Of a stretch of 64,000 nucleotides of DNA, positions 19,241-34,341 are shown one piece after another. The stretch is taken from positions 31,455 through 95,454 of the IMG/VR virus record IMGVR_UViG_3300042516_005631, one strand, 5' to 3'. Position numbers and translations under genes: made by a program. Position 1 is the stretch's first letter; every line of letters begins with the position of its first letter. This stretch comes from a virus. The notes under the pieces were generated by a model, which saw only the letters and a list, made by a program, of their open reading frames with translations, was not told the DNA's origin and ran no database searches.

Positions 19241-19416
19241 GGATTACCACCCTTGTACTTTGATCTTAGATCCTACCACCACACCATTTTCAAACCAGTA
19301 AAACACCAGCTTACCCTCAGGCGTTAAGACCGTGATTGTGGCTTGATCTAAGTTACCGTCTATGTTCTGGATTCTGGGTCTATTAATCTTGATGAATGTG
19401 TCTACGCTCATGGCCC

Positions 19417-19439
19417 CAAAAGCCCGGATCAACCGGGCT
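19417..19439 (-). terminator. Intrinsic terminator closing the cassette array
   Basis: Stem agcccgg/ccgggct, followed by a T-run on the minus strand. Confidence 0.55.
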
Positions 19440-19487: not shown

Positions 19488-19556
19488 TTATTTCTCAAAT
19501 ACCATTATCATTACCGATCCAACAACCACTAAACCAAATATTACTGCTACCACCAT
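19488..19556 (-). CDS. 22-aa hydrophobic micropeptide MVVAVIFGLVVVGSVMIMVFEK
   Basis: Hand translation; ATG lies 1 nt after the upstream stop. Confidence 0.4.
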   Translation of the reverse strand: MVVAVIFGLVVVGSVMIMVFEK

Positions 19557-19557
19557 T

Positions 19558-19626
19558 TTATCCTAGATTTACTAATATCAAATATTTAACTCCAATTACC
19601 AAACAACTTAATCCTAATACTACCAT
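19558..19626 (-). CDS. 22-aa hydrophobic micropeptide MVVLGLSCLVIGVKYLILVNLG
   Basis: Hand translation; first ATG after the class A promoter at 19647. Confidence 0.4.
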   Translation of the reverse strand: MVVLGLSCLVIGVKYLILVNLG

Positions 19627-19678
19627 TTGCTCTTTATTTATACTTTAATATACGAACTTTATTTTAAATGAGGTAGTC

Positions 19679-19999
19679 CTAAGCTGCTACCTCATTACCA
19701 TCGCTCTTAACTTGAGCTGGTCGTCCTCGTTTCAAAGTACCATTTGCTCTTTTACTCTCTAATTCAGCTAATCTCATTTGTCTTACTGAATTTGGATTTA
19801 CAGGTCGTCCTTGGCCAATACCGTTTGCTTTATTCTCTGCTTGTTTAGCTAATCGAATTTGTCTTTCTGAATCAGCTACTACAGGTCGTCCTCGTTTCAA
19901 CTCTCCACTATTTCTTTTTAATTCTAATTCTTTTAATCTTAATTGTCTTACACTGTTTTCATTTACAGGACGTCCTAATTTTTTTACTTCATTTTTCAT
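19679..19999 (-). CDS. Basic DNA-binding protein with four AT-hook-like (R)GRP repeats
   Basis: LGRP, KRGRP, QGRP and KRGRP at about 27-30 aa periodicity, with a repeated S.RQ.RL helix. Confidence 0.7.
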   Translation of the reverse strand: MKNEVKKLGRPVNENSVRQLRLKELELKRNSGELKRGRPVVADSERQIRLAKQAENKANGIGQGRPVNPNSVRQMRLAELESKRANGTLKRGRPAQVKSDGNEVAA

Positions 20000-20075
20000 A
20001 ACTTTTTTCTTTTTAAATTTAACTTATTTTCTTAACTTATTTATACTGTAATATACGAATTACATTTTAATTAAC

Positions 20076-20225
20076 TTAGTCCTGAATTAACATTTTACTA
20101 ATAAATTCTAAACACTCATCTTTATTATTAAAACTAAATCTATTTCCATTTTCATCATTAAAAAACCACCCTACTCTTTCATCAAATTTAACTAATATTC
20201 CTCTATAAACAAACATATTATTCAT
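20076..20225 (-). CDS. 49-aa cassette protein; first 47 codons contain no C (not in track)
   Basis: MNNMFVYRGILVKFDERVGWFFNDENGNRFSFNNKDECLEFISKMLIQD, between the class A motifs at 20250 and 20050. Confidence 0.7.
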   Translation of the reverse strand: MNNMFVYRGILVKFDERVGWFFNDENGNRFSFNNKDECLEFISKMLIQD

Positions 20226-20266
20226 CTTTTATTTTTTTAATTATACATCAATATACGAATTACTTA

Positions 20267-20593
20267 TTAAATTAACTCTTCCTGTTTTAAAGCAAATTGT
20301 TTCAATTCTTCTAGTTTATTATTTAATAATTCAATCATTTCAAGTTCACTTCCTCCAAAATAAAATACTCTACTCTTCATTCCTGGTACTTTCATTTCAA
20401 AACAATTATACAATCCTTTAGCTAATCCTCTTCTAAGCATATCAGCATACTTCTTATTTGCTTCCCCTCCTTTACTCTTTCTATAATAACCAAATACTTC
20501 CTTTTGAATTTGTCCTTCAGTAGCTATAACTGTTAAATCTAAAAATTCTACTATTTGCTTTACACTGTTTTGTTTTCTTCCTTTAAACCCCAT
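20267..20593 (-). CDS. Hypothetical cassette protein (possible winged-helix)
   Basis: 108-aa ORF behind the class A motif at 20620. Confidence 0.6.
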   Translation of the reverse strand: MGFKGRKQNSVKQIVEFLDLTVIATEGQIQKEVFGYYRKSKGGEANKKYADMLRRGLAKGLYNCFEMKVPGMKSRVFYFGGSELEMIELLNNKLEELKQFALKQEELI

Positions 20594-20653
20594 TTTCTTA
20601 TCTTTTTTAATTATACTTCAATATACGAATTATTTATTAATTAATTTAGTCCT

Positions 20654-20760
20654 TTAATTTCTAAATAAAATACTTACAATTTTCTCATCTTCAACATTCA
20701 ATTCTTTCACATCTAAAGTTTGATAAAAGAATGTATCTTCATCTAAGTCATTATCACTTA
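20654..20760 (-). pseudogene. Start-less 3' gene fragment fused to a class A -10 box
   Basis: Open frame SDNDLDEDTFFYQTLDVKELNVEDEKIVSILFRN*, with no in-frame ATG, no A-rich leader, and an in-frame TGA just upstream inside the promoter. Confidence 0.5.
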
Positions 20761-20796
20761 AATATACGATTCAATACTAAATTAATTTACTCCTAA

Positions 20797-20952
20797 TTAA
20801 AACCCAATTAAATCAATTGCTATTTCTCCTGTACTTTTACCATTATAGGTAATCTCATAATTTGGGTCCATCCCGGAAATCATAATATGGGCGATAAGAT
20901 CCCCAATCGTTTTAAACTCTACCTCGTAATAATCACAATTTAAACTATACAT
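20797..20952 (-). CDS. 51-aa protein, paralog of 22847-23002 (not in track)
   Basis: MYSLNCDYYEVEFKTIGDLIAHIMISGMDPNYEITYNGKSTGEIAIDLIGF. Confidence 0.75.
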   Translation of the reverse strand: MYSLNCDYYEVEFKTIGDLIAHIMISGMDPNYEITYNGKSTGEIAIDLIGF

Positions 20953-21015
20953 AATTTATCATTTTTTAATTATACTTTAATATACGAATTATTTATTAAT
21001 TTTACTATTCCTAAC

Positions 21016-21216
21016 TCAACAAAACTTATCTAATAAACCCTTATTCTCTAATTTAATTAAACAATTATTAACATTATAAGGATTCTTTCTTTTATAATTT
21101 TTCAACTCATCATTTACTAAATCCAAAAACTCCTTTTCATCATCCTCACTTACAAAATCAACTTCATCATATTCATTAATAAACAAATTTAACTCTTTAA
21201 TACTTTCAAATTTCAT
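21016..21216 (-). CDS. Acidic 66-aa cassette protein; only 2 C in the CDS
   Basis: Behind the class A motif at 21241; both cytosines are in the single Pro codon. Confidence 0.7.
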   Translation of the reverse strand: MKFESIKELNLFINEYDEVDFVSEDDEKEFLDLVNDELKNYKRKNPYNVNNCLIKLENKGLLDKFC

Positions 21217-21272
21217 ATCTTATCTTTTTAATTATACTGAAATATACGAACTTAATTTTAACTCTGTTATTC

Positions 21273-21467
21273 CTATTTTAAATTAATAATTAAATCAAAT
21301 AATAAATCCTCTAAACTATCATCACCCTTCCAACCTCTCTTATACAAATAATACTCCTTTACATCTTCTAAAGTTTCTAATTTATCAATATCTTTTTTTA
21401 CCTCTAAAGCAAAATCCTCAAAACTCACTTCACATTCAAATTCAAATACTTTTTCTGTTAATGTCAT
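21273..21467 (-). CDS. Acidic 64-aa cassette protein
   Basis: Behind the class A motif at 21492. Confidence 0.7.
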   Translation of the reverse strand: MTLTEKVFEFECEVSFEDFALEVKKDIDKLETLEDVKEYYLYKRGWKGDDSLEDLLFDLIINLK

Positions 21468-21528
21468 CTTTTATTTTTTTAATTATACATCAATATACGA
21501 ATCTTAATTTAATTAACTTAGTCCTGAA

Positions 21529-21732
21529 TTAACTAAATGATTCAATCAAATCAGTTGCAATGTAAACGTCTCTACAAATCAATTCTTCAAATGAAAATAC
21601 CCCTACTGTACCAAATGCTAATTTTACTTGTGCGTCCCATAATTTGTAATTTGTAGTACGCTTTAAACGCTGTTCAATACCTTTTAATTTAATCGTTAAT
21701 TCTAATTTTTCTTTGTTGCTTAATCTGCTCAT
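21529..21732 (-). CDS. 67-aa cassette protein
   Basis: Behind the class A motif at 21755. Confidence 0.65.
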   Translation of the reverse strand: MSRLSNKEKLELTIKLKGIEQRLKRTTNYKLWDAQVKLAFGTVGVFSFEELICRDVYIATDLIESFS

Positions 21733-21772
21733 ATGTCTTTTTTAATTATACCTGAATATACGAATTATATTT

Positions 21773-21886
21773 TTACTCTACTATTCCTAAAATTAAACTT
21801 AATATATATAAAACAATTAAAGGCATTGCAATTGGGAATACTACTTTACCAAATAAATCATTTAAACCCTTGTTTCTCTTTTTCAT
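21773..21886 (-). CDS. 37-aa single-TM peptide (not in track)
   Basis: MKKRNKGLNDLFGKVVFPIAMPLIVLYILSLILGIVE. Confidence 0.5.
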   Translation of the reverse strand: MKKRNKGLNDLFGKVVFPIAMPLIVLYILSLILGIVE

Positions 21887-21889
21887 ATC

Positions 21890-22015
21890 TTAATTCCATC
21901 TAATTACACAATCATCAAATTCTAGTATTTCTAATAGGTTTGAATTTAAAATAATTCCAACAGCCATCTCTTGTTTGATTAATAATCTCAATAATTTAAT
22001 TTCTGCTTTTGTCAT
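21890..22015 (-). CDS. 41-aa cassette protein (not in track)
   Basis: MTKAEIKLLRLLIKQEMAVGIILNSNLLEILEFDDCVIRWN; behind the class A motif at 22040. Confidence 0.55.
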   Translation of the reverse strand: MTKAEIKLLRLLIKQEMAVGIILNSNLLEILEFDDCVIRWN

Positions 22016-22384
22016 AACGTTTCTTTTTAATTATACTTTAATATACGAATCAATTTTTAAAGACACTAGTCCTTAATTAAGCAGTAAGGTGGCCTGCAAT
22101 TTATTGCAAGCTTTTCTTTTATTTTAACAAACGTTCCATCACAGGTCATTCTGATGGGCTTATCCTGGGTATGTTTTGTTGTAGGAGAACATCCAAACTC
22201 ATTCATTTACCAACACGAATACGCTATTTTCCGCCATGTTTTGTAGGTCCTGGGGATATTTCTGTGTCCTAATGCTGTTGCTATCCGTTACCCGTTTCCA
22301 TTATGGAGAATACATTGTATTCAGTAATACATATGTGAAGGTAATGCCTTTTTATTGCTTTTCCAACTATTTTTTTAATTTCTT

Positions 22385-22846
22385 TTACCCCCCTCTCCCC
22401 CAAGGGGGACGGGGGAGTCGCATTTTTTGTATATATTTTTGGAAAGAACGTAAAGGGGACGTGGCGATGTGGGGAAGGGTTAGACCCTAACATTCCCTAA
22501 CACACCCTTAGTGACCTATATTTTCCACATACTATTTTAATTAATTTTCATTTCATTTGATAATTGACGTTTTGTGGTGATTGACATCCTTTCGGTAATT
22601 TCTGTTATTTATTGACGTTTTTCGTTCCGTGACGATTTTCATTGGTAATTTTTATTTTATGATAATTTCCGTTTTGTGGTGATTTTCATTGACGATTTTC
22701 ATTCCCCATGTTGATTTTCATTCCACATAAACTAATCTAAACATTAGTTTAGCTTACATGTTAATTTCTATTCCTTGCGTTTATCTGTTGGTGATTTCTA
22801 TCTTTGACGATTTCCTTGATAATTGACGTTCCTCGTTTTATACACG
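22385..22846. repeat. Iteron-like array (about 17 TG[AGT]YRATT-type units) with a GC hairpin and an AT-rich tract; candidate replication origin
   Basis: tgataatt, tgacgatt, tggtgatt and tggtaatt repeated across 22558-22831. C-run/G-run hairpin at 22389-22417, ccctaa-like x3 at 22485-22510, AT tract at 22533-22558. Confidence 0.5.
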
Positions 22847-23002
22847 TTAAAATCCAATTAATTCAATTAACATTTCCCCTGTTAATTTTCCATTTCTAGT
22901 TATTTCATAATTAGGATCCATTCCTACTTGCATCGCATAATTAATCAATTCATCTATTGAACTAAACTCCTCTACAAAATAATTACAATTTAAACTATAC
23001 AT
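22847..23002 (-). CDS. 51-aa protein, paralog of 20797-20952 (not in track)
   Basis: MYSLNCNYFVEEFSSIDELINYAMQVGMDPNYEITRNGKLTGEMLIELIGF. Confidence 0.75.
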   Translation of the reverse strand: MYSLNCNYFVEEFSSIDELINYAMQVGMDPNYEITRNGKLTGEMLIELIGF

Positions 23003-23054
23003 TTTTTTCTTTTTTTATTTATATCCTGAATATACGATCTCTATTTTATGTTTC

Positions 23055-23255
23055 TTAGTCCTCTAAATCTTCTATAAATTTAGTTTTGGTAAGTATTTCT
23101 GTTCCCCATTCAATGTCATCATCCACTTCCTCACCTTCACCACGTTCTTCTCCTTCTATTATTTTCAATTCTGCTTCTTCTTGTGAATTAGCTTCAACAA
23201 TATATTGTATTGTTTTAGTTGATTTTACTTCTGTTGTAATTCTAAATACTTTCAT
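23055..23255 (-). CDS. Acidic small protein, paralog of 23493-23681
   Basis: Shared FR..TEV....TI.Y..EA.S.EEA...WG.E pattern. Confidence 0.7.
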   Translation of the reverse strand: MKVFRITTEVKSTKTIQYIVEANSQEEAELKIIEGEERGEGEEVDDDIEWGTEILTKTKFIEDLED

Positions 23256-23264
23256 TTTTTTTTC

Positions 23265-23444
23265 TTAATTATATCGTTGCATAATAATATCAGCAAATGC
23301 ATAAAACTGATCAAAATCATCCTCTCTCATTAATGTTACTGCACTTTGAAATTCTAATATAAATGCTTCTCGTTTTGGTGAATTATCAACCAATTCAATA
23401 TCATCTGCTAAGTGTTCAATTTGTTCAAACATTTTTTCTTTCAT
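23265..23444 (-). CDS. 59-aa cassette protein (not in track)
   Basis: Begins MKEKMFEQIEHLADDIELVDNSPKREAF; behind the class A motif at 23473. Confidence 0.6.
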   Translation of the reverse strand: MKEKMFEQIEHLADDIELVDNSPKREAFILEFQSAVTLMREDDFDQFYAFADIIMQRYN

Positions 23445-23492
23445 AACTTTTTTCTCTCTTTATTTATACCGTAATATACGAAATTTATTTTA

Positions 23493-23681
23493 CTAATCTA
23501 TTTCCTCTTCTACAGTAATTACTTCACTTCCCCAATCATATTGTTCATCAAATGTTATTCCATCACATCGGTGTTCTCCGTTTTGTAATTGTTCAAGTGC
23601 TTCCTCTAGTGAATCCGCTTCAATAAGATATTCTATTGTTGCTTTTACTTGTACCTCTGTTTCAAATCTGAATTGTCCCAT
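23493..23681 (-). CDS. Acidic small protein, paralog of 23055-23255
   Basis: Same shared pattern as 23055-23255. Confidence 0.7.
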   Translation of the reverse strand: MGQFRFETEVQVKATIEYLIEADSLEEALEQLQNGEHRCDGITFDEQYDWGSEVITVEEEID

Positions 23682-23682
23682 T

Positions 23683-23979
23683 TTATCTACTTGTTACTGA
23701 TTCGATTACTTCTGTTCCTGAATTGATCATTGCTATTACTCCACCCCACATATTTTCATCTGCTTCCCATTCTACTTCGTGTTTTGCATGTTTCATTTGC
23801 CAATTACTTATTGAAAATCCCATTCCATCTATTTTAAAATCACCTTCACTATTTTTCTTAAATCTTAAATAATGAACATTATCACACATACATGATACTG
23901 TTTTGAATATGACCTCTCTAGCTCCTTCTTTAATAGTTAATTTAGGTTGGTTTAATCTTAATTCTCTGTATTTACTCAT
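23683..23979 (-). CDS. Hypothetical cassette protein (CMC motif)
   Basis: Behind the class A motif at 24014. Confidence 0.65.
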   Translation of the reverse strand: MSKYRELRLNQPKLTIKEGAREVIFKTVSCMCDNVHYLRFKKNSEGDFKIDGMGFSISNWQMKHAKHEVEWEADENMWGGVIAMINSGTEVIESVTSR

Positions 23980-24285
23980 AACTTTTTATTTTTTCTTTTT
24001 TTATTTATACTGTAATATACGAACTTTATTTTAAATCTCTATTTCCCTAAAATTTCATCTAAATTTTCTTTAATATATTCCTTTACATCACTATACTCAA
24101 ATCCATCATTTAACATTTGATCTGCTATTTCATTAATAGCTGTTGTTAATTGTACTGCTGATTCGAATGTTAATAGATTTTCAATTCGTTCTCTTTTTTC
24201 AAAATTCATGTCTTTCTTTTTTATTTACTGAAATATACGAAAGCCCCTTTAATTTGGGGCTTCCTTTACTAAATTTTATTTTAAT

Positions 24286-24633
24286 TTATTCCTCTGTTGA
24301 ATTTTCATCTTCAATGTCATCTTCTTCCTCAACCATAAATTCATCAAGTACTGCATTTACATGTTCCATTATTTCATAAACATTAACATCTATATCAGTT
24401 ACTCGAATAGTATTATTGTAATCTAATTCCAATTCTACACTATCTAGATCAACTAAACCACGACTATTATTATCCATTACTAACTCAATTTTGTTAGATA
24501 TTTTATCTACTAGTTTTGGGGTAAGTCCTCCTGTCTCAATTTGTTTAATCAATTCAATTACTTTATCAATATCAACTGTTGATGATAATACTTTTGCTGT
24601 TTCTAGTTGTTCAATTAAATGTTCTTTTTTCAT
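24286..24633 (-). CDS. Hypothetical acidic cassette protein
   Basis: Behind the class A motif at 24660. Confidence 0.65.
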   Translation of the reverse strand: MKKEHLIEQLETAKVLSSTVDIDKVIELIKQIETGGLTPKLVDKISNKIELVMDNNSRGLVDLDSVELELDYNNTIRVTDIDVNVYEIMEHVNAVLDEFMVEEEDDIEDENSTEE

Positions 24634-24676
24634 ATCTTTTTCTTTTTTTATTTGAGTGAAATATACGAAAGCCCTT

Positions 24677-24919
24677 TTAAATAAGGGCTTCCTTTTTTGT
24701 TTTCTCTACTATAAAAGAAATTGCTCTTTGGTTTTCTGGTAATGTATTATCTGGTTTAATTCCCAAATCTTCCATTAACCCGTTTATTTTAGCCCAATCT
24801 GATACTGAACGTAGTGTAATGTTATTATCTTTTCCAAATAGACTTTCATCTACTTTAATTTGTAAAAATAATTCTGCTTCTTTTTGTTGAATTACTTCAA
24901 TCATTTGTTTTTTTGTCAT
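24677..24919 (-). CDS. Hypothetical cassette protein
   Basis: Behind the class A motif at 24936. Confidence 0.65.
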   Translation of the reverse strand: MTKKQMIEVIQQKEAELFLQIKVDESLFGKDNNITLRSVSDWAKINGLMEDLGIKPDNTLPENQRAISFIVEKTKKEALI

Positions 24920-25262
24920 AACCTTTATTTTCTTTAATATACGAACTTAAATTGGATAACCTATGTCCCTTGCTCCAAAATCTAGCTCTTCCATTTGAGC
25001 TAGTATTGCTAATGCTTCCTCGTCACTCATTTGTTTAGTTTCATTTTTAACTTTAAATCACTAATTGTCATTTCAACAAAACCAGCAGTCATTATTGGTG
25101 TTTTTCCACTTTGCTCTACTTTTTCAATTTCAGCGATCATATCTGCTTGTACTTTGTCTAATCCATCATTGATTAGAAACTTCTCAAAACCATTTAATTT
25201 GCTCATAACTTTTATTTCTTTTTTTATTTATACTGTAATATACGAAATTTCTATTAAATCTC

Positions 25263-25493
25263 CTATGCCCTCATTACTAAATTTAAGGGCACATTAAAAC
25301 CGTCCGGATCAATTACAGGTACAAATTCACCTTCATCTTCATCCATCACGTATTCAATATCTAACCAATCTGTAACATCACAATCTTCATTATTTATTAC
25401 TAGTTTTGCTGCTTCACCACAATCTGAGAGTATAACACCATAACCACAACAATTTGAATATGTGTAATAACCATGGATTTTTTCTTTTAACAT
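25263..25493 (-). CDS. Hypothetical cassette protein
   Basis: Behind the class A motif at 25518. Confidence 0.65.
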   Translation of the reverse strand: MLKEKIHGYYTYSNCCGYGVILSDCGEAAKLVINNEDCDVTDWLDIEYVMDEDEGEFVPVIDPDGFNVPLNLVMRA

Positions 25494-25534
25494 AACCTTT
25501 ATTTCTTTTTATACTTTAATATACGAAATCTATT

Positions 25535-25912
25535 TTAATCTTCTTCGTCCTCTATTTCAAACGTTTTATTTTTTAATTCTACTTTAAGTGCGTCCAATTC
25601 TTCTTTTAATCGTTCAATAAACGATTCTTCTCCATCATCACCTGCCAATAACCAATCTATACGTTGAGCATATATTTCTGCTTTGCGGAGCATTTCATAG
25701 CCTTTTTTAAATTCCTCTATAATTTCATCTGAGTATTTGTAGTGGTTTAGGTCCTCTGGGTATTTTTCGTACCATTCTCTATCTCTGTAATAGCCTTCTT
25801 CTTTTAATTCACGTGGTGTTTTTGGTCTACCACTTCTAGCTATTTCTTGTTCAATATCATCAGCTATGTATCTGATTTTGTATTGGTTGTAATCAAATGT
25901 TCCTCCACTCAT
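25535..25912 (-). CDS. Conserved phage protein (MSGG.FDY...RIDWLL.GDDGEESF)
   Basis: Motif seen; behind the class A motif at 25932. Confidence 0.7.
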   Translation of the reverse strand: MSGGTFDYNQYKIRYIADDIEQEIARSGRPKTPRELKEEGYYRDREWYEKYPEDLNHYKYSDEIIEEFKKGYEMLRKAEIYAQRIDWLLAGDDGEESFIERLKEELDALKVELKNKTFEIEDEED

Positions 25913-25948
25913 AATTTTCTTAATTTATTTTAATATACGAAATTTATT

Positions 25949-26356
25949 TTAATAACCTTCGTCCTTTACTATCCAACCTTTATCAATCAAATGACCAATA
26001 AACCCTCTAAATTCAGCTATGCCTTGTTCATCTAACATTTCCTCTGCTTCCGGCATACTTTCAGGATTTCCTTCATAAACACCTATAAACCATCTAGGAT
26101 TATCTGAATTATCTTTTTTCCAATCATCTCTATTTGCAGGGCGTTTATCTGTTATTTCAACCCAGGAATCAGCATAAATATCTGTTAAATCTTTTGCTTC
26201 GTCTTTCAATATAACTGTTGCTTCAAAACACCATTCATCTGATTCCCAAGTACAACTTAAACTATTTGTAACATCTCTTGGTTTGATTTCCACTATTGGT
26301 AATGTAGATGTTTCTCTAACATACCATACTCCGTCTACTTGTATTCTATCTTTCAT
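25949..26356 (-). CDS. Cassette protein, paralog of 30000-30389
   Basis: Shared RIQV.GVWYVRET, WES..WCF.ATVI and ITDKRPA.R.DW. Confidence 0.75.
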   Translation of the reverse strand: MKDRIQVDGVWYVRETSTLPIVEIKPRDVTNSLSCTWESDEWCFEATVILKDEAKDLTDIYADSWVEITDKRPANRDDWKKDNSDNPRWFIGVYEGNPESMPEAEEMLDEQGIAEFRGFIGHLIDKGWIVKDEGY

Positions 26357-26392
26357 TTTCTTTTTAATTTATTGGAATATACGAAAAGGGTA

Positions 26393-26776
26393 TTAAATAC
26401 CCTCTTCCTCTAATTCTTCTACTAAAATATCTACTGTTGAACGTCCTAATTTATTTACTAACCAAATACCACCTATAGTTAAACAATAAATATATTCTAT
26501 TCCACTTTCAAACCCATAATCAAACAAATCTGGTACATTTGGAAATGTTTTGAAATGTAAATCTTCTCCTCTATCACGATGATATGCTATTGTCCATAAG
26601 ATTGATTCCCCTAACGCTGAGATATCCCCTAGTTCCATTAGTTTTTCGGTTTTTTCTCTATCGTAGTGGTTAAATAATTTTTTACCTACTCCATCTAAAT
26701 AACCATCAAAATGACAATAAATTGATGTTACTGTTCCGTCTTGATTTTCAATTGCTATTCTACTTCTTGTTGCCAT
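26393..26776 (-). CDS. Conserved phage protein (M.TRS.I...SIYCHFDGY family)
   Basis: MATRSRIA...IYCHFDGYLDGVG...GDISAL...AYHRDRGE...EYIY. Confidence 0.7.
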   Translation of the reverse strand: MATRSRIAIENQDGTVTSIYCHFDGYLDGVGKKLFNHYDREKTEKLMELGDISALGESILWTIAYHRDRGEDLHFKTFPNVPDLFDYGFESGIEYIYCLTIGGIWLVNKLGRSTVDILVEELEEEGI

Positions 26777-26834
26777 AATTTTTCTCTTTATTTATACTGT
26801 AATATACGAAATTTCTTTAATATCTTCTATTCCT

Positions 26835-27215
26835 CTATTTTTTATCAATTATCACTTCAACTTTAATTTCTCCATCTACAAAACGACTAACCTGAAAGTA
26901 TTCTACTTCATCCATTGCTTTAATGTCTTTCTTTAATTTGTTTAAAGTTGTTTTATTTTTAATTGAGCCACAACTAAATGCAGGTGAATCAAAATACTTG
27001 ATTCGATATGCTCCATACGGGTTTGTGTTTTTAACTATTTTCCAATCATCATCAGTCAATAAGTCTAGTCTTTTATTTCTATCTTTAATTGTTGCTGAGT
27101 AGTGGTAGCCACAATTTTGGCAATTTACATATTGTTCTCCTGTTTTGTAATAGAAATCACTAAACGCTTCGTGTTCACAGTTTGGACACTCTATTTCATC
27201 TATAAAACTTCCCAT
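26835..27215 (-). CDS. Zinc-ribbon protein
   Basis: CPNC...CQNC. Confidence 0.65.
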   Translation of the reverse strand: MGSFIDEIECPNCEHEAFSDFYYKTGEQYVNCQNCGYHYSATIKDRNKRLDLLTDDDWKIVKNTNPYGAYRIKYFDSPAFSCGSIKNKTTLNKLKKDIKAMDEVEYFQVSRFVDGEIKVEVIIDKK

Positions 27216-27216
27216 T

Positions 27217-27789
27217 TTAATCTTCTCTTGTAATACTTTCTAAACCAAACAAATAAGCTAATACTGTTTCTTCCATTCCTTCATAACATGTAAGTTCCAT
27301 TGATGTTAATATCTCAGCTACAGTTGATGAATTTTGTACCTTTTCAATAGCTTTCATACAATGGTTAGTGTTAGTTTTGATTGTTTTAATAATATCTTCA
27401 ATTTGATCTACTGTATCGTCGTCAATATCTTGTATTGACATTTTAACATCTTGTAGCATATCAAATTCAAAATCTTCAATATGTCCTTCTAACATATTTA
27501 TAACTCGTTGCTTACCTTCTTTAAAATTAAATTTCATAACTTTCTTATTTTCTTCAAATATACGACCTTCTTTTTGCTGAGAAACTTCCTCTACTTTTGT
27601 AAATTGATGTTCAAAATAACCACCATCTGCTTGTTCACCTGATAATTCATCTCGAATCCATTTTACAAAAACATATTCTTCATCATTCCATCCAATGTAA
27701 TACTCTTCAACTATAGCTGTTGCTCCTTTTTTAGCTGCGTATGTACCTTCTCCTTCAAATTCTACTATGTCTCCTTTTTTAAATTTCAT
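27217..27789 (-). CDS. In-frame fusion of two cassettes: SH3/KOW-like N-terminal part plus a helical part with its own promoter and ATG at 27537
   Basis: Internal class A motif at 27557-27590 and an AAAGTTATG start context inside the ORF. Confidence 0.6.
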   Translation of the reverse strand: MKFKKGDIVEFEGEGTYAAKKGATAIVEEYYIGWNDEEYVFVKWIRDELSGEQADGGYFEHQFTKVEEVSQQKEGRIFEENKKVMKFNFKEGKQRVINMLEGHIEDFEFDMLQDVKMSIQDIDDDTVDQIEDIIKTIKTNTNHCMKAIEKVQNSSTVAEILTSMELTCYEGMEETVLAYLFGLESITRED

Positions 27790-27987
27790 CTTCTAATTTC
27801 TTTTTTATTCCATCCAATATCATATTTACCCCATCATATACTTCATCAATTAGATAAAGGTTAGGATGGTATTCATCTATAAGTTCATTTAATTGAAATA
27901 CAAATGCTTTTAATCGTTCTGGGTTGTTTTCTGCAAATTTATTCATAACTTTTATTTTTTTCTTACTTGAAATATACGAAAGGCTCT

Positions 27988-28749
27988 TTAATTAGAGCCT
28001 TCCTTTTTTACTTGTTTTGAAAATTTATCTAACAATTCCTCTGAATTCATTTTCTCAAATTCAGCATCATATTTTTTATGAAGAATTTCTTTATTTTGAT
28101 ATGTGTTTAATGTAAGCTGAATGTAACTACCTGATTCAAATTTAACTTCAATAACATCAAATGTACCACTATATCTTGAATAGTCACTTTTAACCGTTAT
28201 TGTAGCATTTGGGTACAATTTTGTATACTTTTCAACTGTACTTAGTTTTAAACCGTTTTTCTTTTTATATTCCTCCAACAATTGTTCTTGACGGGAATTG
28301 TATGTTTTTAATTTTTCAAGTAATGTTGCAGGTTTAATGTAGCGATAATTATCTTGAATAGTACTACAATTAACTTTATCTCTTTCAAATTCAATATTGA
28401 ATGTAGAATCAACCAATTCATTTGGTTTTGAATATGTATCAAATTGTTTTCCTTTCAAAAAAATACCCCCACCAATTGCTTTATATGTTATTTCAGCTCT
28501 AAAATCAGTTTTGTTATAGGAATAACCTATTGTTGTTTCATTAGTAACAGTTTCTACTTTAAATGTATTAACAAAATCAACATCTTTAACAAAACCATTG
28601 TTGATAAGCAATTGCTCGCGTTGTTTGTTTATACTCTCATTTGTATTAGCAATATCTTCTCTAATTTTGATAAATTCTGCTATTTTTTGTTCTTGTTCAG
28701 GTGTAAATAATATACCATCAAATAAACTTAATTGAATTCCTTCTTTCAT
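27988..28749 (-). CDS. Hypothetical protein with N-terminal QLSLF clamp-binding-like motif
   Basis: MKEGIQLSLFD; behind the class A motif at 28775. Confidence 0.65.
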   Translation of the reverse strand: MKEGIQLSLFDGILFTPEQEQKIAEFIKIREDIANTNESINKQREQLLINNGFVKDVDFVNTFKVETVTNETTIGYSYNKTDFRAEITYKAIGGGIFLKGKQFDTYSKPNELVDSTFNIEFERDKVNCSTIQDNYRYIKPATLLEKLKTYNSRQEQLLEEYKKKNGLKLSTVEKYTKLYPNATITVKSDYSRYSGTFDVIEVKFESGSYIQLTLNTYQNKEILHKKYDAEFEKMNSEELLDKFSKQVKKEGSN

Positions 28750-29004
28750 AACTTTCTTTTTTTATTTATACTTTAATATACGAAATCTATTTTACTTTTC
28801 TTTGTCCTTCATTAATTCTTCTCCAAAATCAGAATTTTTACACCACAATTCCCACATTGCATTAAACCATGCTGGGCCATCTTCTTCATATGTTAGTCCT
28901 TCAACAGTTGCATGTGTGTTTCTAACCAAAAACGCTGTCCAATTTAATAACCAAGGTTCCATTTTCTTTTAATTTATACTTTAATATACGAAATCTCTTT
29001 TAAA

Positions 29005-29391
29005 TTAACTATTCCTTTTTGCTAATATCTTTTGATATTCTTCTTCACATAAAGTTGTATACCAACCTATATCTGTTCTCAATTGTCCTGGTTTGCCTGT
29101 TACCTCGCATGTTTGGTAGCTTAAATCTTCTGCTTTGCTTATACGCGCATGCATTTCATCTGATGCTTCATTGATATAGAAGCGTAGACCACCAAATTTT
29201 TCCTTTATTTGGCATACTTCTTTGTTCCAACCCAATTCAATCAAATCAGTGATAAGGTCTTTTATTAGTTGATACCAACCTGAATCGCATTCAAAGAATC
29301 CTGCATTCGTTATTGGTTCTCTATTTGAGTACATGCCATTTTCCAACCCACCTATGGATTGTAGAAAATCGTTCATTTCTTGTTCTGTCAT
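29005..29391 (-). CDS. Conserved phage protein (QIKEKFGGLRFY...CEVTG family)
   Basis: Motif seen. Confidence 0.7.
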   Translation of the reverse strand: MTEQEMNDFLQSIGGLENGMYSNREPITNAGFFECDSGWYQLIKDLITDLIELGWNKEVCQIKEKFGGLRFYINEASDEMHARISKAEDLSYQTCEVTGKPGQLRTDIGWYTTLCEEEYQKILAKRNS

Positions 29392-29639
29392 AGTTGTTCT
29401 ATTTCTTGTTTAACTTGTTGCCAACTCGTTAAAGAGCCTGCGATAAGGCCTTTAGCATGTGGGTGTAAATCTTCTGCTACTTCAAGTGATTCTTTTAAGT
29501 CTTTTAATATCTCATCTACTGCAATTAAAGCACATTGTTTAGCTGTTGGATGATAAATTATAGAATAGTCTGCTAACTTCTGTTTTCTTATGTTCATAAA
29601 AGCTTCAACTAGCTCTTCTGCTTTTTCTTTTGGTGTCAT
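29388..29639 (-). CDS. Hypothetical phage protein (MTPKEKA...AKQCALIAVDE family)
   Basis: Start moved to MTPKEKA. Confidence 0.65.
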   Translation of the reverse strand: MTPKEKAEELVEAFMNIRKQKLADYSIIYHPTAKQCALIAVDEILKDLKESLEVAEDLHPHAKGLIAGSLTSWQQVKQEIEQL

Positions 29640-29640
29640 T

Positions 29641-29949
29641 TTATTCTGGTTCTTGGTATAATCCTGCTGATTCATCATCTTTCATCATTTGAATCAATTT
29701 TGATTCCCTAACATATTTTCGAATTAAAGCAATAATTACTTTAGGTTCCTCAGCAAATTTTATTTTATCATCATTTTTAATTCCAAACCAAGCAATGTTG
29801 AAACCATGATTTGCTGTAAAATCTTCTGATTTAATTCGAATACCATTTACTTTATCTAAGTAGATCCATGGATAATTTCCAACCAATTCTATTTCGATAC
29901 CACAACGTCTTAATCGTTTAACTAAAATTGAAATTACGTCTTCTCCCAT
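29641..29949 (-). CDS. Hypothetical cassette protein (GNYPWIYL)
   Basis: Behind the class A motif at 29966. Confidence 0.65.
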   Translation of the reverse strand: MGEDVISILVKRLRRCGIEIELVGNYPWIYLDKVNGIRIKSEDFTANHGFNIAWFGIKNDDKIKFAEEPKVIIALIRKYVRESKLIQMMKDDESAGLYQEPE

Positions 29950-29999
29950 TTTTTTAATTTAATTTAATATACGAAAGCTCTCTTACGAGAACTAGTCCT

Positions 30000-30389
30000 T
30001 TATTTTGTTAACCAACCAATACTATTCAAATATAAAAGAAATGCTTTAAATTCCTCTAAACCTTGTTTATCAAACATTTCTCTTGCATCAATCATTGAAT
30101 CAGGATTATCTTCTAACACACCAAACATAAAGTTCGGATTATCAACATCATCTTCAACCCAATCTTTTCTATCTGCAGGACGTTTATCTGTTATTTTAAT
30201 GTATGGGTCCGGGTAATGATCATCTAATGTTTCTGCTCCATCTAACATAATCACAGTTGCAACAAAACACCAGTCGTTTGATTCCCAAATACGTTCCATA
30301 CTGAATGTAATATCTTTTTCTTTTATTTCAGGTGTTGGGTTAGTTTCTCTAACATACCATACACCGTTTACTTGAATTCTTTCTTCCAT
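30000..30389 (-). CDS. Cassette protein, paralog of 25949-26356
   Basis: Same shared motifs as 25949-26356. Confidence 0.75.
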   Translation of the reverse strand: MEERIQVNGVWYVRETNPTPEIKEKDITFSMERIWESNDWCFVATVIMLDGAETLDDHYPDPYIKITDKRPADRKDWVEDDVDNPNFMFGVLEDNPDSMIDAREMFDKQGLEEFKAFLLYLNSIGWLTK

Positions 30390-30390
30390 A

Positions 30391-30747
30391 TCATTTATTT
30401 TCAGTTATTTCAATTAACTTTTTAAGACAAGCAAATTCTGCTTCTTCATAGGTGGTAAAATTTTCAAATCCATGTTCATTATTTCCTAAATCTTCCCATC
30501 CACTACAAAAACCATCACCACTAAAGTTAATAAAATTACATAATTGATACTTCTCTCTAAACCATCTAAATGCTTGTTGGTATAGTGGTGCTGATGTAAA
30601 TCCTCTTCTTGAGTAGTTAGGGGATGTATTTTTCATGTTGTCTAAAACAAATTCATTTTCAACCCCATAGTATCCAAAACAAGGTTCATCAAATCCAAGT
30701 TGCTTCATCTTTAAAGCTAACTCATAAGGTACAAATTCTTTTTCCAT
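30391..30747 (-). CDS. Hypothetical phage protein (EFVPYELA.K.KQLGFDEPC family)
   Basis: Behind the class A motif at 30764. Confidence 0.65.
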   Translation of the reverse strand: MEKEFVPYELALKMKQLGFDEPCFGYYGVENEFVLDNMKNTSPNYSRRGFTSAPLYQQAFRWFREKYQLCNFINFSGDGFCSGWEDLGNNEHGFENFTTYEEAEFACLKKLIEITENK

Positions 30748-30797
30748 TCTCTTAATTTTCTCAAATATACGAAATTTTTACTTTAAAACCTATTCCT

Positions 30798-31052
30798 TTA
30801 CTTTAATATAAAATACATTGACAACAAAGCACCTATTGTATAACCTAAAGAACTAGCCAATGCTAAAAAAAACCTACCTTTCCATGTTTTTTCATCTGCA
30901 ACAAAACCAGCAAATGGTAAAGCAATAAACGGACCTACAAATGCCCAAAACATTGTGCTTGTAATGCTTTTATCTGCTACTGAGCTGATGTACATTGTAC
31001 TTCCAACTTCTAAAATTAGAGCTGATATAGAAATGATTAAATACCTATTCAT
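30798..31052 (-). CDS. Three-TM membrane protein
   Basis: Start moved to MNRYLII, which overlaps the stop of 31045-31278. Confidence 0.55.
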   Translation of the reverse strand: MNRYLIISISALILEVGSTMYISSVADKSITSTMFWAFVGPFIALPFAGFVADEKTWKGRFFLALASSLGYTIGALLSMYFILK

Positions 31053-31278
31053 GGTAATTAAAGCAAACAGCCATATATGTTGGTACATAAAACATTTGTC
31101 CTGCACATTCATTATATTTTGTATGTTCTTCGTGTGGCAGGACTTCAAAGTATGACTTTTCCTCGTCATACGAAATTAGACGTGCTTTCATAGTTGGAGA
31201 GATGTTGGTAAATGTTACTCTACCAACTGCCTCTCTAATATGGTTAAGAGTTTTAACACGTTGTGTTACTTGTCTCAT
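31045..31278 (-). CDS. Hypothetical protein
   Basis: Translationally coupled to both neighbours. Confidence 0.55.
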   Translation of the reverse strand: MRQVTQRVKTLNHIREAVGRVTFTNISPTMKARLISYDEEKSYFEVLPHEEHTKYNECAGQMFYVPTYMAVCFNYHE

Positions 31279-31478
31279 TTTTTCATTCTATAAACTATAA
31301 ATGCAATCAAAAGAGCTGTTCCTGCAATCAGTATAGCTGCTGAAATTGGTATCCAAAGCGGGGCTGTAACCCACCACCAACTCCAAGTAATATGACCTGT
31401 TAATTTTAAAGTCATAAATATAAGGAATAGTATCATACCAATTCCAATTCCGTTTGTGTTTGTTTTTTTATCGCTCAT
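31275..31478 (-). CDS. Small membrane protein (LKLTG.I.WSWWWV.APLW family)
   Basis: Motif seen. Confidence 0.7.
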   Translation of the reverse strand: MSDKKTNTNGIGIGMILFLIFMTLKLTGHITWSWWWVTAPLWIPISAAILIAGTALLIAFIVYRMKK

Positions 31479-31582
31479 TTATATATTTTTCTGTTATTTT
31501 AATTTGACGCTCTAATATGTCTATATACTTGTCACGTGATTCAATGTCTTTCTTTAAAATTTCAATTATTTCCTGTTGAATC

Positions 31583-31771
31583 TCAATTATTTTCTCTAGT
31601 TGTTTTCTCTTCATTTTTATTTTCTTTAGATTCTTTTATTTCAGCATAAATTATAGCATAAACAATTGTTAGAATAAATAGAAATAGTGTTTCTACTGTG
31701 AAAAAATAAAGCCCTGCTACTATAGCGGCTAATACTAAAAGTGTTGTTGTTGTTTGTAAATGTGTATTCAT
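31583..31771 (-). CDS. Two-TM small membrane protein
   Basis: Behind the class A motif at 31794. Confidence 0.6.
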   Translation of the reverse strand: MNTHLQTTTTLLVLAAIVAGLYFFTVETLFLFILTIVYAIIYAEIKESKENKNEEKTTRENN

Positions 31772-31832
31772 TTTCTTTTTTTTAATTTATGTTAATATAC
31801 GAAATTTCTTTTGCTCATAAACGTCCTTTTTT

Positions 31833-31868
31833 AAAAAACCTGCCGTATGTTCGTATCCACACGGCAGG
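31833..31868 (-). terminator. Intrinsic terminator after the tRNA-like RNA
   Basis: Stem cctgccgt/acggcagg with a T-run on the minus strand. Confidence 0.7.
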
Positions 31869-31894
31869 AAAAGAAACGGTTATGAAGCGTTTTG

Positions 31895-32001
31895 TAGTCA
31901 GAACAGGATTCGAACCTGTAAGTGGGTTTATTCATTTCATTCTTATATCACCCTTTCATATAATCTTCTAGATAGCGTCTAACCAATTCCGCCACCTGAC
32001 T
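31895..32001 (-). ncRNA. tRNA-like RNA with Leu-type D arm and the anticodon/variable region replaced by an insert of about 55 nt
   Basis: Acceptor AGTCAGG/TCTGACT+A, D region GGCGGAATTGGTTAGACGC, T arm ACAGG-TTCGAAT-CCTGT; no 5-bp/7-nt anticodon arm can be formed. Confidence 0.75.
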
Positions 32002-32010
32002 ATTTTTTGC

Positions 32011-32814
32011 TTAGGCAGCTATAAATTCAGCTGCCATTGCAAATAATTTTTGATTGATTTCTAGGTCTTGTTTGAAATTTTTCACTTTACGTGCTTTTCT
32101 TATTTTAGCACCTGACATATATGTGAATCCTCCATCCAATATTTTCTCTTGGATCACATTAAATACTGACCATAAATCACTGCCTTTATCTTCAGGGCGA
32201 GTTGGTTCAAGTAACAAATCTAAATCAATGTTCATTGCCTCAACTTGTTCTTCCTCGAATCGAGTTGTCAATGCTTTTTTAGCTAATTCTTTTGCTTGCT
32301 CCTCATTCAATTGGATAGCTTTCATTTTATTCATTGATTCAACTGTTAATGGTAATTGTTCAACCATAGCACGGATTTGTGTTTGCAATTCCTCAAATGT
32401 GTAACCCATGTGACGCATTTTTACATCATTGAATTGCTCAGTGGAAATAACTAAACCATTTTCACATACCAAACGAAACAAACCAGCTGTAAATGTAAAT
32501 GCATTTTTTCCGTCATTTGAATTTGTTAATAGGATTTGTGGAAATACTGTATCACCATCTGCTCCATTAATTACTACATCTGGGTTACGGAATACAACTA
32601 AGTGTTTTTGGAAACCAACACCTTTTCTCGCTTTAACTTCTTTAGCATCAATTACACTCCATCCTAATTGAGCCATATCCTCAATTACTTTGTAAGTTGG
32701 AATATGTGTGAATTTAGATGAAACTGTTGGGGAAGCTGTTTCGGTGAATACTGATTTTGCTCTTTCTTTGATTTCGTTGGTTGTTAAAAAACCATCACTT
32801 TTCAAATTTAACAT
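32011..32814 (-). CDS. DUF932/DUF945-family protein
   Basis: VSSKF.HIPT..VI...GW, KHLVVFR, PQILLTNSNDG..AF...AGLFRLVCENGL and LWSVFNVIQE. Confidence 0.8.
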   Translation of the reverse strand: MLNLKSDGFLTTNEIKERAKSVFTETASPTVSSKFTHIPTYKVIEDMAQLGWSVIDAKEVKARKGVGFQKHLVVFRNPDVVINGADGDTVFPQILLTNSNDGKNAFTFTAGLFRLVCENGLVISTEQFNDVKMRHMGYTFEELQTQIRAMVEQLPLTVESMNKMKAIQLNEEQAKELAKKALTTRFEEEQVEAMNIDLDLLLEPTRPEDKGSDLWSVFNVIQEKILDGGFTYMSGAKIRKARKVKNFKQDLEINQKLFAMAAEFIAA

Positions 32815-32890
32815 AACTTTTCTTTTTTTAATTTAACTTTCTTTTCTTAATTTACTTTAATATACGAAAACTTTTTTAAATATCCAAATT

Positions 32891-33226
32891 TTATTTGTAA
32901 AATTTATTATCATCTATTTCAAAATCGAAATCATCTTCTACCTTGTAATAGTCATCTTCTATTTCCAAATCATCAAATTCATCTTCTGGGTCTCTATATT
33001 CAGGTAACAATCCAGCTTTCTCTACTATCCACCAAACTCTATCTTTGAATAGATCAATTGAAGTGCCATTTATTTCTGTAATACCATTTTCGGTAAGTAA
33101 TGCTAGTTCCATAATTAACTCGCATGTTAAATCATCAATTTGCTCTGTTGTCAATTCACCTGCTTTGAATTTTGTCTTTAAATCCAAAAATTTTGTCTCG
33201 ATAATGTGTTTTTCTTTCTTTGCCAT
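32891..33226 (-). CDS. Hypothetical protein with very acidic C-terminal tail
   Basis: D/E-rich tail of about 30 aa. Confidence 0.6.
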   Translation of the reverse strand: MAKKEKHIIETKFLDLKTKFKAGELTTEQIDDLTCELIMELALLTENGITEINGTSIDLFKDRVWWIVEKAGLLPEYRDPEDEFDDLEIEDDYYKVEDDFDFEIDDNKFYK

Positions 33227-33231
33227 AACTT

Positions 33232-33459
33232 TTATTTGTTTAATTCGTCTCTAATAACTACTGCCAGTTCATATTCTTCATTTTCAATAGCGTATTGTAA
33301 CATATCTTCAATTAATGCTCTAAAATCACCATCAAACGCATCATCAAGAATACGTTGTAATCTTATTTTATCATCAATGTCTAATTTACTATCTCTGATA
33401 ATTGGGTAAAAATCATTGTTGCTTCTTGCTATTTGCTCTAAAATTCTTCTTTCGTTCAT
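33232..33459 (-). CDS. UVR (UvrB/UvrC) motif protein
   Basis: LQYAIENEEYELAVVIRDEL. Confidence 0.75.
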   Translation of the reverse strand: MNERRILEQIARSNNDFYPIIRDSKLDIDDKIRLQRILDDAFDGDFRALIEDMLQYAIENEEYELAVVIRDELNK

Positions 33460-33520
33460 AACCTTTATTTTTTTCTTACTTGAAATATACGAAAGCCCTC
33501 TTACGAGGGCTATTCCTCTT

Positions 33521-34282
33521 TTAAAGAGCTAATGCGTATTGATCAGCTAAGCTAAATAATTGCTGATTTAAAATAATATCAGTGTTGAAATTAGATACAT
33601 CAGCAGTTAGATTTTCTTGTACTCTGTTGAATACTGTCCATAAATCATTGCTTTCATCTTCAATTCGATTAACTGAAAGTAAATCATTTATAGTAATGTC
33701 AGATATTTGATCTTCGCTATATCTTAATTGAGCGGCTTTATGAGCAAATTCTCTTGCTTCCTCTACAGTCATATTTTTGTTTTGTAATATACCAAAACTC
33801 TCTAATACTTTATCTGTTTTGTTATTTACTGATTGAATAAATCGCTGTAAATCTCTAGCATTAATTTCGGTATGTTTGATTTGCGTGCTTTCTCCGTGTT
33901 GATCAAAAGCAATTGCTCCATTGGAACATACCTGTCTATATATTCCTAAATCCATTGTTAATGGTTTATTTCCGTTACAACTATTTGATATAGTAAGAGA
34001 TGATACAGCTTCTGTTTTACCTAGTTTATTTTTTAAACTGAAATCAGGATGATGTAATTGAACATAATTTGATGTTATTTTACGATTTTTTCCTCTTTGT
34101 TCAGCTACTCCTTTTAATAGCCAACCATCGTTCTGTAACATTTCAAGTACTTCTAATGTTGGAATATAGAATGGTTTTTGTTTGATTCGTTGAACATTTT
34201 TAATGTTGTTTGAATCTAATGTGTTAGCAAATGCTACTGCTTTGTTGATGTTGTTATCAACAGGGATAAATTTGTACTTCAT
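33521..34282 (-). CDS. DUF932/DUF945-family protein (second paralog)
   Basis: YIPT.EV...GW, LTISNSCNG, GIYRQVCSNGAI and LWTVFNRVQE. Confidence 0.8.
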   Translation of the reverse strand: MKYKFIPVDNNINKAVAFANTLDSNNIKNVQRIKQKPFYIPTLEVLEMLQNDGWLLKGVAEQRGKNRKITSNYVQLHHPDFSLKNKLGKTEAVSSLTISNSCNGNKPLTMDLGIYRQVCSNGAIAFDQHGESTQIKHTEINARDLQRFIQSVNNKTDKVLESFGILQNKNMTVEEAREFAHKAAQLRYSEDQISDITINDLLSVNRIEDESNDLWTVFNRVQENLTADVSNFNTDIILNQQLFSLADQYALAL

Positions 34283-34341
34283 AGTTTTTCTTTTTTAATT
34301 ATACTTTAATATACGAAAGGGAGATTACTCTCCCTATTCCT

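Follow-up and report, generated by a model that had tools for sequence, protein, structure and literature searches.

Why should a phage carry a group of small genes whose messages contain almost no cytosine (C)? The question is raised by a cluster of genes near position 20,000 of a 64,000-nucleotide stretch of viral DNA, hereafter the window, which corresponds to positions 31,455 to 95,454 of the IMG/VR virus record IMGVR_UViG_3300042516_005631. This record is 95,454 bp long, is judged 59% complete and is labelled G000 below; the window is its right two-thirds. Three genes of the cluster exclude C so thoroughly that the amino-acid make-up of their products is affected, and in related phages the same exclusion recurs as an inherited rule among small genes. 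We present the evidence for this rule and weigh its possible causes, one of which is a link to the probable replacement of guanine (G) in the DNA of these phages by a bulky 7-deazaguanine.

The phage is uncultured and T4-like, of the Flavobacterium-phage type, with a gp23 capsid protein, gp20 portal, prohead protease and T4-type terminase, and with nearly all genes of the record on one strand. A DNA similarity search against known phages gave no match; the closest cultured relative is Flavobacterium phage immuto, the major capsid protein of which is 59% identical. The leaders ahead of the start codons are A-rich and have no Shine-Dalgarno sequence, which fits a host among the Bacteroidota.

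Three genes almost without cytosine

All genes in this region lie on the minus strand, so that a plus strand without G means a messenger RNA without C. An exact recount bore out the figures of the original prediction, which had been made from the letters of the window alone: 20085–20256 comprises 172 nucleotides (nt) with no G on the plus strand, 20101–20220 has 26 C and 0 G, 21001–21480 has 9 G in 480 nt, and the genes at 20076–20225 and 21016–21216 have 2 plus-strand G each. The 172-nt run extends from just past the C of a promoter's TTCG to the next CAGGAC box. It is the longest G-free run in the window, and runs of 157, 106 and 93 nt are found in the same 1.5 kb; the longest outside this zone is 97 nt. 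By comparison the longest runs in the window without A, C or T are 30, 90 and 24 nt, respectively.

The first of the three genes, gene A (20076–20225, minus strand, 49 amino acids [aa]), has 2 C in 150 nt. Both belong to its two final codons, CAG and GAC, where the gene overlaps the CAGGAC (AGGA) box of the next cassette, while its own promoter boxes (TTCGTATATT-N4-TATAAT, 20240–20259, minus strand) have an architecture identical to that of the other 34 cassettes described below. Gene B (21016–21216, minus strand, 66 aa, a member of family F32) also has 2 C, both in its sole proline codon, CCT. Gene C (21273–21467, minus strand, 64 aa) has 4 C, which belong to three threonine codons and one alanine codon. 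The coding-strand C content of genes A, B and C is 0.013, 0.010 and 0.021, against 0.13–0.15 across most of the genome, and the proportion of C among pyrimidine-ending third positions, C/(C+T), is 1/26, 0/35 and 0/27, against 0.19–0.20 genome-wide. Sampling synonymous codons at the frequencies used across the genome, without altering the proteins, gave expectations of 10.2, 13.7 and 14.3 C where 2, 2 and 4 are observed (P ≤ 1e-4), and random genes of equal length are expected to contain 21–28 (P < 5e-5); the depletion therefore exceeds anything that codon and amino-acid usage would give. The claim that the bias reaches the proteins was likewise upheld: in the three genes all serine codons are AGT, all leucine codons TTA or TTG and all arginine codons AGA. 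C is replaced mainly by T (0.38 vs 0.28; T is 0.36–0.39 in the C-free genes), and purines rise from about 0.57 to 0.60.

The effect is seen gene by gene. A 108-aa gene (20267–20593, minus strand, 19 C) is purged at its synonymous sites only, with a third-position C/(C+T) of 1/36; its likely immuto homolog, judged by eye from shared motifs, has a normal C content of 0.120 and a ratio of 7/49. Two genes of the zone have normal C, namely a 51-aa gene flanked by C-free cassettes (20797–20952, minus strand, 16 C, third-position 6/30) and a 67-aa gene (21529–21732, minus strand, 21 C, 7/27). A 51-aa paralog of the former (22847–23002, minus strand, 7 C, 0/22) shows the synonymous purge, and a 106-aa gene with AT-hook (GRP) repeats (19679–19999, minus strand) has a normal C content of 0.121. 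Elsewhere in the array third-position C/(C+T) is 0.189, against 0.196 outside it.

The array in question consists of 35 co-oriented promoters of the TCGTATAT type (19648–35710, minus strand), recognized as a sequence pattern. Each predicted promoter has the boxes TTCGTATATT-N4-TATAA(T/A) about 36 nt ahead of an ATG, and the C-free genes occupy the final 2.5 kb. The C-poor zone is bounded upstream by a C-rich non-coding island with iteron-like repeats (22076–22846), beyond which lies the 51-aa paralog just mentioned, and at the end of the array by a terminator-like G-C hairpin (19421–19439, minus strand; AGCCCGG-TTGAT-CCGGGCT followed by TTT). This hairpin was read from the sequence by eye and was missed by our hairpin scan, which found no terminator-like hairpin at 19.6–22 kb and whose sole match lies at 24239–24264. 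Immediately past the hairpin the C content jumps, the gene at 19244–19411 having a third-position C/(C+T) of 14/25.

Several further observations concern these borders. In the gene at 19244–19411, which specifies a conserved 55-aa protein and adjoins about 300 nt of C-rich non-coding DNA, the bias is reversed; its ratio and those of its relatives (11/23 to 17/28) are the highest that we saw. Past the last cassette promoter (19648), 19500–19630 holds two C-poor hydrophobic open reading frames (ORFs) of about 22 aa each, MVVLGLSCLVIGVKYLILVNLG and MVVAVIFGLVVVGSVMIMVFEK, and related phages have C-free membrane peptides of 42–47 aa (family F48) at the same end of the array. The 770-bp island contains many co-oriented GAAAATCGTCAA- and ACGTCAAT-like repeats together with a C-run/G-run hairpin; it may be an origin or a region bound at several sites. 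The C-poor zone has an equivalent C-rich island at its border in immuto and in every relative examined. Within the array two DUF932 paralogs (32011–32814 and 33521–34282) adjoin a KaiC/AAA-like ATPase gene (34342–35145), and the immuto array likewise holds a DUF932 gene. Outside the array, 46347–56763 is a sugar-chemistry cluster with a GDP-mannose 4,6-dehydratase, several family-2 and other glycosyltransferases and FkbM methyltransferases, which could glycosylate virion proteins, host surface glycans or DNA. The comparable cluster of immuto is annotated with glycosyltransferases, aminotransferases and a "pilin glycosylation protein".

An inherited rule in related phages

The 66-aa gene B was found in six IMG/VR contigs at 88–91% identity, and a nearby 264-aa gene is common to 80 more. 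Gene content and order are mosaic among the contigs sharing the 66-aa gene, which indicates that cassettes are shuffled between close relatives. Over 1,784 called ORFs the coding-strand C content is bimodal, with a separate peak at 0–0.02, and about 26 unrelated small-protein families stay below 0.03; since the ORF calls were simple (ATG, longest, non-overlapping) and many contigs are related, the family counts are approximate. The exclusion can be very extensive. In contig L004 two adjacent ORFs, each of 138 aa and 417 nt, contain 0 and 2 C, and in contig L018 positions 3638–4614 are 977 consecutive nt without C, spanning four cassettes together with their promoters, in which TTCG has become TTTT, TTAG or TTTG. 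The promoters of this block, TTTTATATATT, TTTAGTATATT and TTTTGTATATT, lack the conserved C of TTCGTATATT, and the AGGAC box reads AGGAA; the element having been retained here without its C, that conserved C is not needed for its retention. A distinct promoter class for the C-free cassettes was considered and rejected, because architecture and spacing are common to both kinds of cassette, TATAAT being slightly better in the C-free ones.

In the complete 166-kb relative G001 (the record behind contig L029) all genes below 0.03 C lie at 62.6–65.9 kb. The "direct terminal repeat" that IMG/VR gives for this genome is 127 bp, and its likely origin is an overlap left by the assembler in a circular or permuted genome, not a physical repeat. 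In phage immuto gp143 alone is C-free (117 aa, C 0.014, third-position 0/61); it lies about 1 kb past the equivalent C-rich island and is flanked by genes with normal C. The complete relative G002 has one gene only, at 0.027. A function of the zone in replication origin activity or R-loop formation was dropped from consideration, the C-free genes varying in position and being missing in some relatives. Within the C-free ORFs the C content is lowest in the first fifth, and the residual C lean to the 3' half (24 vs 41, p 0.046), a weak trend based on clustered counts. We take the C-free genes to be a discrete, mobile class of small cassette genes, probably early ones. We found no published description of natural C-free genes in the literature searchable for this analysis.

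Had the homologs of these genes shown random C content, the depletion could have been dismissed as drift; instead, low C is kept. Family F32 is represented by five distinct nucleotide sequences with a synonymous divergence (pS) of 0.27 and a ratio of nonsynonymous to synonymous divergence (pN/pS) of 0.07, and C is involved in none of the 171 pairwise differences between them, whereas in control families of those contigs it figures in about 30%. The gene holds exactly 2 C in five neighbourhoods that range from 0.014 to 0.103 C. A collection of 5.8 billion proteins contains 31 full-length F32 variants, at whose variable sites as many as 8 different residues occur, nearly always among the 15 that can be encoded without C; threonine and glutamine occur as singletons only, and the lone proline is replaced by serine in six variants. 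An AlphaFold model of the 66-aa protein is a three-helix bundle (pLDDT 88), and this confidently predicted fold indicates that C-free genes encode real folded proteins. As to what these do, Pfam, PHROG, PDB-fold, BFVD-fold and Atlas searches gave no lead.

The manner in which C is avoided tells something of the level at which the rule operates. Counted over one representative per C-free family, arginine is encoded by AGR 56 times and by CGN once, leucine by TTR 163 times and CTN once, and serine by AGY 86 times and TCN four times, while pyrimidine-ending third positions are C in only 16 of 791 cases. C is thus avoided in every context and codon position and not in one motif. Since NNC is avoided in favour of NNT, and since promoters and spacers can also be free of C, selection at the level of proteins or tRNAs provides no explanation; the rule seems to be maintained by selection acting on the nucleic acid itself, and we infer that it is selection, rather than mutation, that holds it. 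The supply of tRNA was rejected as a cause because NNC and NNT share one tRNA. The phage specifies six tRNAs (41309–43734), which are Ala-UGC, Ser-UGA, Asp, Thr-UGU, Gln-UUG and Glu; four of them (Ala, Ser-UGA, Thr and Gln) read codon families that the C-free genes avoid.

Modified guanine as a proposed cause, and its rivals

The DNA of immuto has no detectable dG, all of it being replaced by 7-(formylamino)methyl-7-deazaguanine (fdPreQ1), which is made via FolE, QueD, QueE, QueC, QueF, DpdA3 and DpdN, and this DNA is resistant to restriction enzymes that have G in their recognition sequence (PMC10516641). A modified nucleoside replacing dG has been measured in immuto, phiST and CP220 only. 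QueC, FolE and a DpdA3 homolog are, however, encoded by the complete relatives G001 and G002 and by the 77% complete G003; the DpdA3 matches (E 1e-46 to 1e-48) were obtained with the immuto protein as query, since the Pfam TGT model (PF01702) misses this protein. QueC and FolE had no match in G000 or G004, both of which are fragments. Collinearity of G000 with G001 extends from 12.2 to 108.3 kb, the contig end of G000 falling 7–13 kb short of the Dpd/Que cluster, and the absence of DpdA3, QueC and FolE from it is most simply put down to truncation of the contig; the window's own phage would then carry the modification genes in its missing part. A search for the alternative hydroxymethylcytosine route (thymidylate-synthase-like and dCMP deaminase genes) revealed nothing conserved, ThyA being present in G002 only. 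The clade to which the window's phage belongs very probably replaces every G by a 7-deazaguanine of the fdPreQ1 type, and if so "no C in the mRNA" very probably amounts to "no modified G in the template strand".

The explanation that we favour builds on this equivalence. Keeping small cassette genes free of C on the coding strand would keep their template strand free of G, and the confinement to A, G and T, achieved through synonymous sites, the choice among six-fold codons, amino-acid make-up and, in some relatives, promoters and spacers, would be tied to the DNA chemistry of a clade in which the G of virion DNA is replaced by a bulky 7-deazaguanine. A G-free template would be the sole stretch that the host RNA polymerase could read without meeting a modified base. 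From an infecting genome that is fully modified, C-free genes could then be expressed more rapidly than any others; alternatively, their expression could be the same at any state of modification. Either would be of most use to accessory genes that are needed first. In support, bulky 7-substituted 7-deazaguanine is the most inhibitory of the template modifications for the RNA polymerases of Escherichia coli and Bacillus subtilis in vitro (PMC4838386). Among ten genomes in which ORFs were called (G000, G001, G002, immuto, Mel-JY01, RM378, LR756508, CP220, phiST and phiSM), genes below 0.03 C are present in G001, immuto and G000, where the Dpd region is cut off, and marginally in G002. There are none in three capsid relatives without QueC (Rhodothermus phage RM378, Microcystis phage Mel-JY01 and the 484-kb LR756508), and none in phiSM. 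In this set C-free genes are thus confined to genomes with the G-replacement pathway, if G000 is taken to be truncated. Why C should be the base excluded may need no further answer. From the genetic code alone, C is the only base that can be dropped while keeping ATG, all three stop codons and a broad set of amino acids (F, L, I, M, V, Y, N, K, D, E, C, W, S, R and G), so that any pressure toward a three-letter message can only be met by dropping C. Economy in the use of the modified base, by contrast, was rejected as a motive, since the coding-strand G of the C-free genes is not reduced (0.20–0.29).

The original prediction had listed avoidance of a bulky modified G among its hypotheses. The chemistry of immuto and the presence of DpdA3, QueC and FolE in collinear relatives have strengthened it, while other findings weigh against it. 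Campylobacter phage CP220, which has DpdA3 and all of its G as dADG, has no gene below 0.064 C, and Cellulophaga phage phiST, with all G as dDG, has none below 0.077; complete replacement of G is not sufficient for C-free genes to exist. G002 has the pathway yet only its single, marginal gene. The window's own contig has no DpdA3 match in the 59% of the genome that it represents, and the three genomes with C-free genes constitute one clade, so that the association is confounded by ancestry. The other cassette genes of the array show no graded synonymous depletion, which fits a special class of genes better than a general cost of reading modified G. Lastly, the block imposed by bulky deazaguanine in vitro is at initiation, elongation being unaffected (PMC4838386). 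The same study found that unsubstituted 7-deazaguanine is tolerated by both polymerases, a difference that could separate fdPreQ1 from the dDG of phiST. In sum, we infer a causal link between modified template G and selection for the C-free class as our leading explanation, holding it tentatively and at somewhat less than even confidence. A more specific form, in which the three-letter cassettes with their 15-amino-acid proteins are a pre-early "fast lane" for first-responder functions such as counter-defence, bypassing the cost of transcribing hypermodified G, is doubtful.

The strongest rival, also among the causes originally proposed, places the target in C of the nascent RNA, or in cytidine triphosphate (CTP), instead of in DNA; threatened genes, for example those of counter-defence, would be written without C. 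The candidate agents are ddhCTP made by a host viperin, endoribonucleases that require C (MazF-like enzymes or a phage shut-off nuclease), and Rho loading on YC-rich RNA. Such an agent would account for a discrete, accessory class that varies between phages as anti-defence repertoires do, and for the absence of graded depletion from the other early genes. One hit per C gives a reason for the count to reach zero, a separate promoter for each cassette lets selection act gene by gene, and the weak lean of residual C to the 3' half points in the same direction. Strand composition driven by Rho is moreover documented in B. subtilis (PMC13323073). An agent acting on RNA would nevertheless leave unexplained why the rule has so far appeared only in a clade that replaces G, and most genes of the phage keep 13–15% C and would stay exposed. 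Each candidate meets a difficulty of its own: site-specific RNases do not call for the avoidance of every C, and in the case of Rho, G is already about twice C in all genes of the array, while T, which raises the score of a B. subtilis Rho target, goes up. The host factor itself is hypothetical here. We regard this alternative as a serious one, somewhat less probable than the explanation by modified G.

A mutational footprint would require no agent at all. C-to-T deamination of an exposed non-template strand, through heavy transcription, R-loops near the candidate origin or single-stranded circles of cassettes, is suggested by a strand-specific bias in which C is replaced mostly by T, by the position of the zone directly downstream of the iteron island, where without terminators read-through accumulates, and by the sharp change in C level at the hairpin 19421–19439. 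The AT-hook family (F15) also conforms, in that its C content follows that of unrelated neighbours (rho 0.72), a context effect that fits either a shared expression class or read-through. Transcription-associated deamination, as the original prediction had proposed it, is however difficult to reconcile with the arrangement of the genes. The C-normal genes of the zone (6/30 and 7/27) stand among C-free or purged ones (0/35, 0/27 and 1/36), and no terminator separates the two kinds. Many phages have a C-normal copy of family F24 next to C-free genes, F32 keeps its two C in all five neighbourhoods, and immuto gp143 has normal genes on both sides. The state thus goes with the gene family from one neighbourhood to another. 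The kinds of substitution argue in the same sense. C-poor and C-normal copies of F15 coexist, and of the 12 first- and second-position C losses between them 9 are transversions and 3 are C-to-T; the changes of arginine CGN to AGR and serine TCN to AGY are impossible by C-to-T changes; A-to-G is barely raised (third-position G/(A+G) about 0.17 vs 0.14); and five amino acids are still missing from proteins at a pN/pS of 0.07. At compositional equilibrium a very strong biased mutation has the same appearance as selection, and with that proviso we consider the mutational explanation unlikely, to the point that we would give it little weight. In some phages the AT-hook gene has paralogs of both kinds (in contig L028, 2664–2987 and 5649–5984), the copy inside the zone being C-poor (0.059) and that at its end C-normal (0.125); in the C-poor copy alanine is replaced by valine, lysine, glutamate or serine, and the two form a natural pair for estimating the cost of removing C.

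It is a slightly less probable proposition still, and one we hardly credit, that the aim is an unfoldable mRNA, suited to Shine-Dalgarno-independent translation in the Bacteroidota or to the cold, or able to evade sensors or nucleases directed at structured RNA. The folding energy per nt is indeed weaker in C-free genes (median −0.108 vs −0.167), the zone has no G-C hairpins or intrinsic terminators, the leaders are A-rich with no Shine-Dalgarno sequence, and C is lowest in the first fifth of the ORFs. The gain is modest, though (about 35% in an already AT-rich message), and since structure falls gradually with C, selection would gain little by purging the final one or two C or those distant from the start codon; nor does this proposal explain why only some cassettes are affected.

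The remaining suggestions, restriction avoidance in first-injected DNA (one of the causes originally proposed) and a by-product of selection on proteins or tRNA supply, are very improbable: palindromic four-mers containing G/C are about 3.5-fold rarer in the zone (4.7 vs 17.3 per kb) and four of the six phage tRNAs read the avoided codon families, but the zone is mid-genome in the circularly assembled G001, the terminase of the window's phage is T4-type, a single cut elsewhere still kills the phage, G modification already blocks restriction in immuto (PMC10516641), and protein or tRNA selection cannot produce the avoidance of NNC or promoters and spacers without C.

Known systems and the meaning of a three-letter message

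Several known systems share a part of what is seen here. Messages without ACA resist MazF, the mRNA having been recoded through synonymous sites and amino-acid choice so that the RNase finds no site. Such messages avoid one short motif, whereas here a whole base is excluded, promoters and spacers included. C-less and G-less cassettes are transcribed without using the nucleoside triphosphate concerned or reading its template partner. As in the present case, the transcripts of these in-vitro transcription cassettes do without one nucleotide (C-less templates, PMC9303389), but the laboratory constructs are artificial, short and non-coding, while the C-free stretches described here are natural and encode conserved folded proteins. 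In B. subtilis a purine bias that avoids Rho represents selection on coding-strand composition for the protection of nascent RNA, an excess of C over G being the liability (Dierksheide et al. 2026, PMC13323073). There the bias extends over the whole genome, is graded and disfavours T as well (PMC13323073), whereas the rule described here is discrete, total and limited to a few cassettes; G is far above C, as would be expected of a composition of the Rho type, but T is not low (0.36–0.39).

The closest parallel in genome organization is that of the promoter-early stem-loop (PeSL) mobile cassettes of the T4-type phages RB49 and phi1 (Arbiol et al. 2010, PMC2839356). As with PeSL, a T4-type phage has its small ORFs in an array, and a strong sigma-70-like promoter, here predicted from sequence, is repeated ahead of each. 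PeSL ORFs are small and non-essential, and recombination at the repeats shuffles their cassettes among close relatives; shuffling is seen here too. Unlike PeSL, the C-free zone has no terminator stem-loop for each cassette, since RNA without C cannot form G-C stems, and no rule of base exclusion has been described for PeSL cassettes. The paper on fdPreQ1 in immuto describes the base and its synthesis only, and no effect on gene composition or transcription (PMC10516641).

The rule implies that the enforcing agent acts on a single elementary event, either a C in RNA or a G in the template, and it is therefore directly testable in the cultured immuto–Flavobacterium system. Whatever the agent, C-free ORFs offer a simple signature by which a special class of early phage genes can be recognized in metagenomes, and their products are a natural example of proteins built from a reduced alphabet of 15 amino acids. 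If the agent proves to act on RNA, an unrecognized C-dependent defence or shut-off mechanism would exist in the Bacteroidota. If modified G is the cause, the hypermodification of phage DNA would carry a hidden cost, and these phages would have a genomic way round it; and should the C-free cassettes indeed serve as a fast lane past the modified base, they would be the first example of genes whose coding alphabet has been shaped by a modified DNA base.

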